Positions 19,644 through 27,138 of a DNA stretch of 64,000 nt are shown one piece after another. Below the pieces are notes generated by a model that was not told where the DNA came from, ran no database searches, and saw only the letters and a program-made list of their open reading frames with translations. The translations under genes were made by a program, and so were the position numbers. How positions within the stretch are numbered: the first letter of the stretch is position 1; the number at the start of each line of letters is the position of its first letter. Origin of the DNA: Candidatus Saccharimonadota bacterium (GTDB lineage: Bacteria; Patescibacteriota; Saccharimonadia; Saccharimonadales; UBA10212); assembly GCA_025934715.1 (NCBI GenBank), contig JAICWR010000001.1, positions 8,387 to 72,386 on the forward strand. Direction: 5' to 3'.

Positions 19644-20234
19644 ATGGCAAGTGTTGCAGAGCTGATTAGCGCTAAGCAGAAAAAGAAAGCCGTGGTCGAT
19701 GTACGTCCTGGTGACACTGTGCGCGTACACCAAAAAATCCGCGAAGGCGGCAAAGAGCGCATCCAGGTCTTCGAGGGCCTCGTCATTAAAGTATCACGTA
19801 AAAACAGCCTAACCAGCCGTTTTTTGGTCCGGCGCATCGCCAGCGGCATCGGCGTGGAAAAAAGTTTTTTAATCCACTCGCCGGCTATATTAAAAGTTGA
19901 AGTAGTCCGCCGGGCAAAAGTCCGCCGCAACTACATGACATACATGAGAGAACTCACTGGCAAGAGCGCCCGCCTAATGGGCGTCGATTTTGATAAAGAA
20001 GCGGTTAATGCCATCCACGACGAAGCCGCCGAAGCCGAAGAGGAGCGAATCCACGAAGAGCAAGTCGAAGCTTACGACCCCGAGTCCGCCAAGGCCGAAA
20101 AAGAAGCCGAGAAGGCCGAGGCCGATGCTGCCACGGCCGATGAACCAAAGTCCGAAGCCGCCAAAATCGAAGACCAGCCAAAAGAAAAGGCCGAAGCCAA
20201 AGCCCCAGCCCCCGAGCAAAACAAAGAAAAATAG
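19644..20234 (+). CDS. rplS: 50S ribosomal protein L19 with ~80-aa acidic/Lys-rich C-terminal extension
   Basis: L19 core (VRVHQKIREGGKERIQVFEGLVI..IHSPAILKVEVVRR) followed by a low-complexity E/A/K tail. Confidence 0.93.
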   Translation: MASVAELISAKQKKKAVVDVRPGDTVRVHQKIREGGKERIQVFEGLVIKVSRKNSLTSRFLVRRIASGIGVEKSFLIHSPAILKVEVVRRAKVRRNYMTYMRELTGKSARLMGVDFDKEAVNAIHDEAAEAEEERIHEEQVEAYDPESAKAEKEAEKAEADAATADEPKSEAAKIEDQPKEKAEAKAPAPEQNKEK

Positions 20235-20465
20235 CTCGCCCCTGTCTTCTCCGAACGCGTCGCCAACACAGATGCATCCGTCGTCAAAAACAGGCTTGCA
20301 AAAGAACTCCTCATAAAAACAGTTCCCAGTTGTTTGTCTTCGTCAGACAAGCTTTTGCACCAAGGGCGCCACTTTTTCACGACATCTACTCAGGTTGGCT
20401 CCTTATTGTTTGTCAAAGACAGGGGCTCGCTTACCGAAAGAAATAGACAGCCCGTCAAATATACT

Positions 20466-20494
20466 TTGACATAACTTGTATATTGTGATATTAT
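20466..20494 (+). promoter_or_regulatory. near-consensus sigma70 promoter driving the ncRNA locus
   Basis: TTGACA (20466..20471), exactly 17-nt spacer, TATTAT (20489..20494). Confidence 0.6.
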
Positions 20495-20500
20495 AACTTC

Positions 20501-20990
20501 GTGATGCCCGCCACGCGTGCGAAGTAGCCACTCGGGAACTGGCTTGACGCGGGACGGCCTAGGGGAGGCTGACTCTGCGCGACGCCCTTATCCCCAGGGG
20601 CGATCGCATTTGCCAGAGGCGCAACCTGCTTCTTAGGAAGCCGGACGGTGCGCCCCAAGGGCTGGGTACAAGTGCCGGCTAACAAGCCGGTGAAGTAGCG
20701 CACCGAAGGGTTGCGTTGACAGCCGCCAGAGAAGCGCGGCTGACCCTTCTAAGAGAAGTCGGTGCCAGTGGCGATCCCAGCGCCGTTCCGACTTCTCCCA
20801 GGCTGTTCGCACCAGCCGCTTGGGTAAAACTTTCGTGGGATCCCAATGTTGGCGGCCCAAGCGCCAATACCCACATCTGTTACCGGAGGACTTTTCGAGA
20901 GAGCGCCGCCTTGTTTTCAGGGCGATTCCTCTGGCGCCTTAGGCGCTCTCTCATCTCAACCCCCTTAGCCAACGCGCTTAGGGGGCTCTT
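20501..20990 (+). ncRNA. ~490-nt GC-rich structured RNA; RNase P RNA-like motifs but class unresolved
   Basis: Bracketed by its own promoter and an intrinsic terminator. It has many perfect helices (e.g. 20753..20762/20788..20797 at 10 bp, 20897..20907/20942..20952 at 11 bp, and long-range 20612..20619/20928..20935 at 8 bp). AGGAAGCCGGAC, AGGGCUGGGU and GUGCCGGCUAAC..GCCGG resemble bacterial RNase P CR-I/P8 as I remember the E. coli sequence. The overlapping track ORFs look spurious. Confidence 0.6.
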
Positions 20991-20999
20991 TTCTTTTTA
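20960..20999 (+). terminator. rho-independent terminator of the ncRNA
   Basis: CCCCCTTAGC / GCTTAGGGGG stem (9 bp plus 1 mismatch) with loop CAACGC, followed by CTCTTTTCTTTTT. Confidence 0.7.
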
Positions 21000-21015
21000 A
21001 GCTTATAATAGAGGT

Positions 21016-21579
21016 ATGGTTGGTGTGGATGAAGTGGGCAGGGGGTGCTGGGCTGGTCCGTTACTTGTGGTAGCCGCGAGAGCCAATAACGAGCTGCCAG
21101 ACGGGCTGAAAGACTCTAAATTATTATCAAAAAAACAAAGAGATGAATTACTTAACATGTTAAGTAATTGCTGCACTTTTGGTGAAGGTTGGGTGAAAGC
21201 ATCGGAAATTGATAGACTTGGCCTGGCAAAAGCGCTGCGGCTTGGCATAAGACGGGCCCTCGCGGGAATCAAGGCAGATTCCACCGAGGAAATTATTCTC
21301 GACGGCAAAATTAATTATTTGCCCAAAAGGTTCAAGGAGGGGCGGGCGATAGTCGACGCCGACAACCGCGTGCCAATAGTCTCAGCGGCCAGCATTCACG
21401 CTAAGGTTACCCGCGACCGGTTTATGGCTGAACTTAGCAAAAAATACCCAGTCTATGAATTTGATAAGCACGTCGGCTACGGTACCAAAGCCCACATGCT
21501 TGCGCTAAAGAGCCACGGAGCTGTTAAATATGTCCATCGGTATTCATACGCGCCGATTGCCAAATTGACAGGAGCTTGA
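21016..21579 (+). CDS. rnhB: ribonuclease HII
   Basis: 187 aa with N-terminal GVDEVGRGCWAGPL (the DEVGRG catalytic motif). A TATAAT box at 21004..21009 lies 6 nt upstream of the ATG. Confidence 0.9.
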   Translation: MVGVDEVGRGCWAGPLLVVAARANNELPDGLKDSKLLSKKQRDELLNMLSNCCTFGEGWVKASEIDRLGLAKALRLGIRRALAGIKADSTEEIILDGKINYLPKRFKEGRAIVDADNRVPIVSAASIHAKVTRDRFMAELSKKYPVYEFDKHVGYGTKAHMLALKSHGAVKYVHRYSYAPIAKLTGA

Positions 21580-26494: not shown

Positions 26495-26502
26495 CGCTCC
26501 AC

Positions 26503-26628
26503 ATAACCTTAAAACCAAACCGCTCACGCGCGGACGGTGCGCCGCCTGGGCTGCTAAGAAATTCTAGCATCCCCACGCCGCACCGACCCGGCTCCGCTGG
26601 GGGATGTAGAGTTTAGTTTTAAGGTTAT
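26503..26628. repeat. 126-nt long-hairpin element (18-nt AT-rich inverted termini, GC-rich core); structured RNA or MITE-like
   Basis: ATAACCTTAAAACCAAAC (26503..26520) pairs with GTTTAGTTTTAAGGTTAT (26611..26628) in 17 of 18 positions. The core has CGGTGCG/CGCACCG and CATCCCC/GGGGATG pairings and shares CGGACGGTGCGCC with the ncRNA at 20642..20654. Confidence 0.6.
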
Positions 26629-26812
26629 GGCTCGCTTAGCCTACTAAATTCATCTGTTTTCTTGGGGTTTGCCGTCTGAAGGGGCTCGCTCAAAGTCAGT
26701 GACTATGACGCTTATTTGCTCAGGCAGTCTTGGTAGCGTTTGCGGATAATATAGGGGCTCGCTCGCTGAAGATCAATGTTGCTAAATTCATAAAAGATGG
26801 TACTATATTATA

Positions 26813-27109
26813 ATGCACTTTGAAGATGGAAAAGTAGTCGGCGACACGGCTGAAGAATCGCTTGTAATTGCTGAGGCTGAAATTATCGGCGCGGCCCCTT
26901 GGGAGTCCAACAGATATCCTTACCCGGCTTACTATAAGACACCCTCTCAATATCGTTTAAACTTAATAAAAACTCTCGAAGATGGCAGTAGAGCCGGGCA
27001 ACATCTTGTAATTAGAGGCCTCTCTAGAATTGCAATGTCACAACGAAAACTGGCATTTGCGGCACTTGATGTGCTTACTCAAGTGGCTGATAGGTCTATG
27101 ACTCCGTAA
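26813..27109 (+). CDS. orphan hypothetical protein (98 aa)
   Basis: Stop-free frame in an AT-rich intergenic island between nusA and clpC. No family recognised. The stop lies 2 nt before the clpC CIRCE element. Confidence 0.45.
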   Translation: MHFEDGKVVGDTAEESLVIAEAEIIGAAPWESNRYPYPAYYKTPSQYRLNLIKTLEDGSRAGQHLVIRGLSRIAMSQRKLAFAALDVLTQVADRSMTP

Positions 27110-27111
27110 AA

Positions 27112-27138
27112 TTGGCACTCTTGACATGAGAGTGCTAA
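27112..27138 (+). promoter_or_regulatory. CIRCE (HrcA-type) operator upstream of clpC
   Basis: TTGGCACTC-N9-GAGTGCTAA has one mismatch to the consensus TTAGCACTC-N9-GAGTGCTAA. The N9 spacer contains TTGACA (27121..27126). TGgTATAAT lies at 27143..27151. Confidence 0.8.

Follow-up and report, generated by a model that had tools for sequence, protein, structure and literature searches.

A private hairpin-rich insertion with its own promoter and terminator in the rplS-rnhB spacer of a Saccharimonadales bacterium

The stretch analysed here (the window) comprises 64,000 nucleotides of contig JAICWR010000001.1 from a Candidatus Saccharimonadota bacterium (assembly GCA_025934715.1), and the element in question is a GC-rich block of about 490 nt located between rplS (ribosomal protein L19) and rnhB (ribonuclease HII). 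The block is part of an insertion of ~765 nt which, among the loci compared, is private to one Saccharimonadales lineage. It is bracketed by a near-consensus promoter and an intrinsic terminator, is non-coding and rich in hairpins, shares modules with a second private insertion 6 kb away, and belongs neither to RNase P RNA nor to any Rfam family. The reading favoured here, with moderate confidence, is that of a young lineage-private cassette encoding a strongly transcribed, hairpin-rich orphan non-coding RNA (ncRNA), related to the second such insertion. The window is the visible sequence of this genome, and the copy counts of the element hold within these 64 kb.

The insertion and the transcription unit predicted within it

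The comparison comprised 80 syntenic loci from species-representative genomes and five closer ones obtained through a protein index. The rplS-rnhB spacer has 781 nt here (20235-21015); its counterparts in the ten closest loci, L081, L082 and L134-L136 (RnhB identity 73-76%) and L001-L003, L005 and L006 (55-63%), measure 29-88 nt. In the flank alignment the rplS tail and the -10/start region of rnhB are intact, and since the spacers of the relatives are short and these flanks unbroken, the window carries the ~765-nt insertion. Gene order is the same in the five nearest loci (L081, L082 and L134-L136). No compared relative has similar sequence in this spacer, and none of 86 Saccharibacteria loci contains any.

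The insertion is a composite formed, from left to right, by a rod-like hairpin of ~200 nt, an AT-rich stretch with a palindrome over the -35 hexamer, the promoter, the ~490-nt GC-rich chain of hairpins and the terminator, which ends just before the native -10 element of rnhB. The features of the locus and of the second insertion are the following:

19644-20234, + strand: rplS, upstream flank, encoding ribosomal protein L19, whose long C-terminal tail is rich in K/E/A (open reading frame, ORF; in relatives the syntenic genes are supported by tblastn and Pfam PF01245)
20233-20431, - strand: left module, rod-like hairpin of ~200 nt closed by inverted repeat I1 (20233-20248/20416-20431; 16 nt, 88% complementary)
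20421-20431, also at 26680 and 26753, + strand: exact 11-mer AGGGGCTCGCT, three exact copies, all intergenic and in lineage-private insertions
20454-20470, no strand assigned: palindrome GTCAAA-N5-TTTGAC over the -35 hexamer, read from the sequence, a 6-bp hairpin in the folds
20466-20494, + strand: sigma-70-type promoter TTGACA-17-TATTAT with extended -10 TG, 11 of 12 positions matching the consensus
20501-20998, + strand: predicted non-coding transcript of ~490 nt with 62% G+C, folding into successive stable local hairpins (start placed from the -10 position)
20642-20664, + strand: 23-nt block CGGACGGTGCGCC-N5-GGGCTG, with 20 of 23 positions in common with 26531-26553 of the second insertion in the same orientation
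20647-20797, + strand: best-structured core, formed by a three-way junction (helix 20647-53/20698-704 around 20675-80/20685-90) and two hairpins, 20705-49 (7+7 bp) and 20753-97 (10 bp), the helices being perfect Watson-Crick
20897-20952, + strand: hairpin with an 11-bp stem (inverted repeat I4), perfect Watson-Crick
20960-20998, + strand: intrinsic terminator, stem 20960-20985 (6+3 bp) and U-tract 20986-20998, -15.9 kcal/mol
21004-21009, + strand: TATAAT before rnhB, marking the right edge of native spacer DNA, its position conserved in uninterrupted relatives (spacer comparison)
21016-21579, + strand: rnhB (RNase HII), downstream flank (ORF, PF01351)
26495-26778, no strand assigned: second lineage-private insertion, in the nusA-clpC spacer, missing in L149 and L081, with a GC-rich three-way-junction island (26502-26629), a 14-bp closing stem and three GGCTCGCT copies

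A preliminary description of this locus, made by eye, had reported the promoter, a GC-rich terminator and a G+C content well above that of the flanks, and the three observations hold. Only three promoter sites matching at 11 of 12 positions exist on both strands of the window, all of them intergenic and pointing at a downstream unit; the one at 20466-20494 is alone in having the TG and is the best-supported promoter match of the whole window. The terminator stem is followed by CTCTTTTCTTTTT at 20986-20998. It is formed by 6+3 bp around a 1x1 mismatch, on account of which a consensus terminator scan passed over it. The G+C content is 0.60-0.655 over 20500-20900 and 0.40-0.50 in the flanks, and the promoter and terminator, both on the + strand, exactly bracket this GC-rich block. 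The palindrome that overlaps the -35 hexamer may be an operator, that is, a repressor site controlling the predicted RNA.

The block is considered non-coding because codon-phase G+C periodicity is absent (0.61/0.61/0.63) and because it shows no protein likeness in any frame: its six-frame translations, joined and compared with 5.8 billion proteins to detect a decayed gene or an ORF miscalled at related loci, gave no similarity.

The seven helices listed in the preliminary description are all perfect Watson-Crick duplexes at the places assigned to them. The block contains 17 perfect 7-mer stems (2.8 +/- 2.2 in dinucleotide shuffles) and 34 perfect 6-mer stems (10.3 +/- 4.2), counts that none of 1000 shuffles reached in either case. 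The minimum free energy of the element on the + strand corresponds to z = -3.5, with the signal concentrated in segments 20641-20800 (z=-4.2 on the + strand, z=-3.7 on the - strand) and 20896-20995 (z=-3.9); controls taken from coding and from ordinary intergenic sequence lie near z 0. The + strand is favoured, both in segment 20797-20895 (z=-1.3 vs +0.9) and overall (-221.7 vs -218.5 kcal/mol). A long-range pseudoknot pairing had also been proposed, between 20612-19 and 20928-35; the 8 bp are there, but at chance level, two long-range 8-mer pairings being observed against a shuffle mean of 2.1, with at least one in 80% of shuffles.

Within the element an in-register similarity of ~50% was identified at an offset of 171 nt (20501-20608 vs 20672-20779). 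It is marginal, its score being reached by 5 of 500 shuffles, and GAAGTAGC, GGCTGAC and GGCGATC recur at equal spacing in both halves, which may reflect an old internal duplication. The tandem repeat finder identified no repeat in the element.

In the left module the - strand has by far the more stable fold, at -89.6 kcal/mol (z=-5.0), the + strand reaching -65.9 kcal/mol (z=-3.0). The module is closed by a copy, in inverted orientation, of the native 3' flank of rplS. This 16-nt inverted repeat closes the left ~200-nt module only; neither terminal inverted repeats nor a target-site duplication were identified around the whole insertion.

Two other Saccharibacteria MAGs, L046 (2272-3500) and L031 (578-1813), present in the same rplS-rnhB spacer a conserved, ORF-poor block of ~1.2 kb, with 75% identity over 788 nt between them. 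GC-rich and AT-rich segments alternate in it, and promoter/terminator pairs on the minus strand bound two or three units of ~300 nt, which may be unannotated RNA or small-protein genes. No match to Rfam, ARAGORN or the RNase P profile was obtained for these blocks, and they show no similarity to the element of the window.

Comparison with RNase P RNA and other RNA families

The preliminary description had considered the locus either a strongly remodelled RNase P RNA or an unclassified large ncRNA. A diverged rnpB gene of the Candidate Phyla Radiation (CPR), beyond the reach of standard models, would agree in size, in G+C content and in being a structured, stand-alone gene of several hundred nt with its own promoter and terminator. 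A few strings of 8-19 nt resemble CR-I, P8 and J5/15, the six short blocks following the order of E. coli M1, and the window contains no other rnpB. In addition, Lui et al. 2021 (PMC8172020) found rnpB in 10 of 35 closed CPR genomes with RF00010 only at a lowered threshold; many of these RNAs were without some helices, and P12-P18 can be lacking. Plain Rfam negatives are thus not decisive alone, as CPR rnpB can fall below the RF00010 threshold.

The element gave no match to RF00010 at the gathering threshold (curated, 100 bits) nor at E<=10, whether the 751-nt locus alone or the whole window was searched. The 12 class-A rnpB controls, fetched and checked, score 257-341 bits on the same model; they belong to four phyla (Pseudomonadota, Campylobacterota, Bacillota and Actinomycetota), none being Saccharibacterial. 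The permissive cmscan mode reports matches down to ~9-15 bits on a comparable stretch, and a weak RF00010 match on the element would probably have shown in it. An nhmmer profile built from the 12 class-A RNAs and run with filters off (--max) gave no match in the element even at E<=1e5, nor anywhere in the window.

Direct comparison with E. coli M1 was made with a sequence 100% identical to the annotated rnpB, which by blastn recovers rnpB from Pseudomonadota, Campylobacterota, Bacillota and Actinomycetota in the plasmid collection at E 1e-10 to 1e-45. Aligned with this sequence by Smith-Waterman, the element yields z values of 0.7-1.6, with 19-86 of 300 shuffles as good. The RNase P-like strings of the preliminary description do occur where it had placed them (one is off by a single base), but their similarity to M1 does not exceed that of shuffles. 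The order of the blocks, taken there to be unusual, is collinear with M1 in all six, and this collinearity is not significant.

The conserved core is missing as well. The CR-I motif GAGGAAAGUCCGG (5' strand of P4, with the bulged U) is present with at most one mismatch in 12 of the 12 controls and has no match at <=3 mismatches within 20501-20998, where the element carries AGGAAGCCGG in its place, one A short and without the bulged U. The CR-V motif ACAGAAnCCGGCUUA (3' strand of P4) has no match at <=3 mismatches in the element either. No canonical P4 could be traced in the preliminary description; the P4 proposed there, with CCGG-AGGA-CUU, needs a 4-nt bulge, and the universally conserved bulged U is missing. 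The P1/P2 closing helices are also lacking, and the element is a chain of local hairpins, unlike the nested S and C domains of class A RNAs. A preference for folding of the sense strand was found in 11 of the 12 real rnpB controls (median ~-19 kcal/mol), whereas in the element it is only -3.2 kcal/mol over 495 nt. Finally, an essential and ancient gene should not be a private, unconserved insertion that none of the relatives has in this spacer; and the window represents ~6% of a genome assumed to have ~1 Mb, so that finding no second rnpB in it is expected.

The identification as a remodelled RNase P RNA is therefore regarded as largely refuted, the covariance model, the profile, CR-I/CR-V, the M1 alignment, the strand asymmetry and the insertion status being all contrary to it, and of the explanations considered here it is the most improbable. 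The locus should not be annotated as rnpB, and a resemblance to RNase P spotted by eye in GC-rich sequence is no evidence of membership. Sites similar to CR-I in L066 and L075 were considered as Saccharibacterial rnpB and rejected, both lying inside ORFs of ~450 aa. Many records of the PLSDB plasmid collection (e.g. NZ_CP154629.1, NZ_CP119140.1 and NZ_CP141089.1) are whole chromosomes of 2-5 Mb with unannotated rnpB; these mislabelled chromosomes were the source of the control panel and are a caveat for users of that collection.

The Rfam search recommended in the preliminary description returned neither RF00010 nor any other standard family, so no known family claims the locus. The 4227 models, in permissive mode, gave only noise on it (Scr4115, E=4.5; HOXA11-AS, E=6.5), and so did the Rfam searches of the window, the second island and the gaps of the relatives at gathering and permissive thresholds. 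The families without a match comprise RNase P class B and archaeal, tmRNA, SRP, 6S, group I and II introns, OLE, GOLLD, ROOL, HEARO, raiA, riboswitches and T-box. ARAGORN identified no tRNA or tmRNA in the element. A literature search on structured ncRNAs of Saccharibacteria and the CPR yielded nothing relevant besides PMC8172020.

The second insertion and the origin of the element

The second insertion lies in the nusA-clpC spacer, which has 725 nt in the window. The closer relative L149, which shares the small ORF98 described below, has 39 nt opposite the 284-nt block 26495-26778, and L081 also is without the block. Its island (26502-26629) is structured on both strands (z=-4.1 and -61 kcal/mol on the + strand, z=-4.7 and -70 kcal/mol on the - strand), is closed by the AU-rich 14-bp stem and has no Rfam match. 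Presence/absence polymorphism at an otherwise conserved site is thus common to this insertion and to the one between rplS and rnhB.

The 23-nt block and the 11-mer are shared by the two insertions. The 23-nt block has a Smith-Waterman score of 31, against 19.2 +/- 2.3 in shuffles (0 of 500 reach it), and in both insertions it is the 5' strand of a GGUGCG helix located right after a small hairpin. The 11-mer AGGGGCTCGCT, which could be a protein-binding or recombination site, was not identified in any of the 149 related loci fetched. The motif GGCTCGCT has 8 copies in the window, 4 of them in the two insertions, which represent ~1.6% of the sequence; it is present also at 26629, with an imperfect inverted copy at 20233-20248. 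Given the common 23-nt block, the 11-mer and the enrichment in GGCTCGCT, the two insertions are taken as products of the same process or family. Self-comparison of the element with the window gave only the 23-nt and 11-nt matches, and no further copies were identified in the 64 kb or in any relative. It is doubtful, though conceivable, that the element and island 26502-26629 are the first visible representatives of a family, specific to this lineage, of structured-RNA cassettes that are expressed and insert into the spacers of housekeeping operons; if true, they would represent either a mobile RNA-gene module of a new kind or, in an episymbiotic CPR bacterium, a new large ncRNA with a real role in the cell.

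ORF98 (26813-27109, 98 aa) lies between nusA and clpC with a promoter of its own. It has no match in Pfam, PHROGs or PADLOC. Among 5.8 billion proteins its one homologue is P0121, which is 61% identical, is encoded at the corresponding place of L149 and was used to date the second insertion. The clpC promoter has a perfect inverted repeat lying over its -35, (A)GCACTCT-TGAC(A/T)-TGAGAGTGCT, at 27113-27137 of the window, at ~6425-6450 of L081 and at ~1022-1046 of L149; conserved in three lineages, it is probably the operator of a stress-response repressor.

According to the favoured reading, the ~765-nt insertion would have entered a spacer normally of 30-90 nt as a self-contained gene, in which the promoter at 20466-20494 would drive a ~490-nt orphan structured RNA from the + strand, ended by the intrinsic terminator. 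The cassette would have been delivered by a mosaic insertion element, or would be one itself, as suggested by the modules common to a second private GC-rich structured insertion. The strong promoter and the terminator would then have been set between rplS and rnhB, probably uncoupling a pair co-transcribed in relatives, and any role at the RNA level, such as protein binding or a sponge, would be recent rather than ancient. That a promoter and a terminator are placed between two genes essentially contiguous in all relatives is fairly safe.

Several observations weigh against this reading. The fold is nearly symmetric between strands, with the difference of -3.2 kcal/mol set against the median of ~-19 of real RNase P RNAs, and the structure is built on perfect Watson-Crick inverted repeats, for which palindromes at the DNA level would be just as good an explanation. 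Structure is not in excess in the first 140 nt of the predicted transcript (z=-0.1), and no GNRA or UNCG tetraloops were identified among the hairpin loops read from the sequence. No homologue was found by nhmmer and blastn in the 86 Saccharibacteria loci (80 of them syntenic), nor by distant-mode blastn against phages and plasmids or by two scans of viral contigs. A metagenome scan with a three-motif gapped pattern derived from the internal half-repeats gave 51 matches, all of them chance matches in high-GC coding DNA. Without a homologue, neither covariation nor conservation supports a functional RNA. The other alternative of the preliminary description, an unclassified large ncRNA, is compatible with the signals, the non-coding nature and the hairpins, the element being a putative functional RNA whose structure signal is near equal on both strands and for which no homologue was found to examine covariation.

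The main competing explanation is a selfish or neutral palindromic insertion acting at the DNA level (REP/BIME, BOX, Correia or miniature inverted-repeat transposable element type), in which promoter and terminator are incidental and the RNA has no function. We consider it rather unlikely, but the most serious of the alternatives. The helices are almost pure Watson-Crick and therefore both strands fold about equally, which fits young inverted repeats and not an old ribozyme; the presence/absence polymorphism against all relatives, the modules common to two independent spacer insertions, the inverted copy of the rplS flank that closes the left rod and the weak internal similarity at 171 nt point in the same direction. 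The two insertions, however, share just 23 + 11 nt and not the end-to-end similarity of a repeat family. The lack of more copies in the 64 kb or in any relative, and of clear terminal inverted repeats or target-site duplication, also speaks against such a repeat, and a promoter of 11/12 with TG that brackets the GC-rich block together with a proper terminator is hardly accidental.

Less probable is an origin as foreign high-GC DNA, for instance from an actinobacterial host, or as a chimera in the assembly of this metagenome-assembled genome, with no role here. Saccharibacteria are episymbionts of high-GC Actinobacteria, the G+C content is 10 points over the genome average and the insertion was seen in this assembly alone. 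Yet only the RNA body is GC-rich, the promoter, left module and terminator tail being native-like, and the tRNA of the window also has 60% G+C, as expected of structured RNA genes. The element has no coding signal and no similarity to records of the plasmid collection (actinobacterial replicons included), phages or metagenomes; its junctions with rplS and with the rnhB promoter are clean, and the second related insertion lies on the same contig. These points make a foreign or chimeric origin quite unlikely.

Still less likely is a long cis-regulatory leader of rnhB-yraN, of the attenuator or riboswitch type, in spite of a layout that is the classical one of an attenuator: promoter, structured RNA, terminator 17 nt before the start codon, gene. 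No riboswitch, T-box or leader family was matched, no convincing anti-terminator pairing was found and 490 nt is very long for a leader. The relatives regulate rnhB without it, and the conserved -10-like TATAAT of rnhB sits past the terminator.

Comparable systems and neighbouring genes

Nothing points to a new kind of mechanism. The element is in no described RNA family; its place is among the orphan ncRNA genes restricted to a lineage and the structured insertions of intergenic DNA, a class already known. Mosaic intergenic repeats, such as REP/BIME of enterobacteria, BOX of pneumococci and Correia/NEMIS of Neisseria, are lineage-specific, hairpin-rich and modular, and insert within or between operons; their presence varies between close relatives and they can carry promoters or terminators that rewire neighbours. 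The insertion resembles them in being lineage-specific, hairpin-rich, modular and located in an operon spacer. It differs in its larger size (a structured RNA of 490 nt and a rod of 200 nt), in having no demonstrated terminal repeats or target duplication and in that two related insertions, sharing 23 + 11 nt, are visible in 64 kb.

With the large RNAs OLE, GOLLD, ROOL, HEARO and raiA the element shares the size class of 400-800 nt, an extensive predicted structure, its own transcription signals and the lack of coding capacity. Their Rfam models do not match it, and they are defined by wide conservation and covariation, whereas the element is without any homologue found and shows no sign of RNA-level selection. 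Orphan small RNA (sRNA) genes restricted to a species also have their own promoter and Rho-independent terminator, are intergenic, occur in a narrow lineage and belong to no family. The element is 3-5 times longer than typical trans-acting sRNAs, and neither evident target complementarity nor an unstructured seed region was found in it.

With its strong promoter and its terminator, the insertion divides what was ancestrally a single rplS-rnhB unit. If the RNA is made and active, it would be a rare case of a genome-reduced CPR bacterium in which a large structured RNA gene has newly arisen, and it would show how reduced genomes gain transcription units inside conserved operons. The one aspect worth following is that a CPR genome carries two private insertions, related to each other, in spacers of housekeeping genes.

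The gene order around the insertion is a pilB-like ATPase, rplS (19644-20234), the spacer, rnhB (21016-21579) and a yraN-like gene, followed by pepN on the opposite strand. Exact look-up in the contig index gave no entry for the RnhB of the window or for P0001, which is 99% identical to it. The RnhB encoded just 3' of the element has hundreds of homologues in Saccharimonadales with 65-76% identity, and its gene appears to retain a promoter element of its own, the TATAAT at 21004-21009 just past the terminator being the putative -10. The L19 protein has 196 aa in total, with a C-terminal extension of ~80 aa rich in K/E/A/P that related Saccharibacteria have kept, the proteins of L082, L135 and L136 measuring 191-196 aa.

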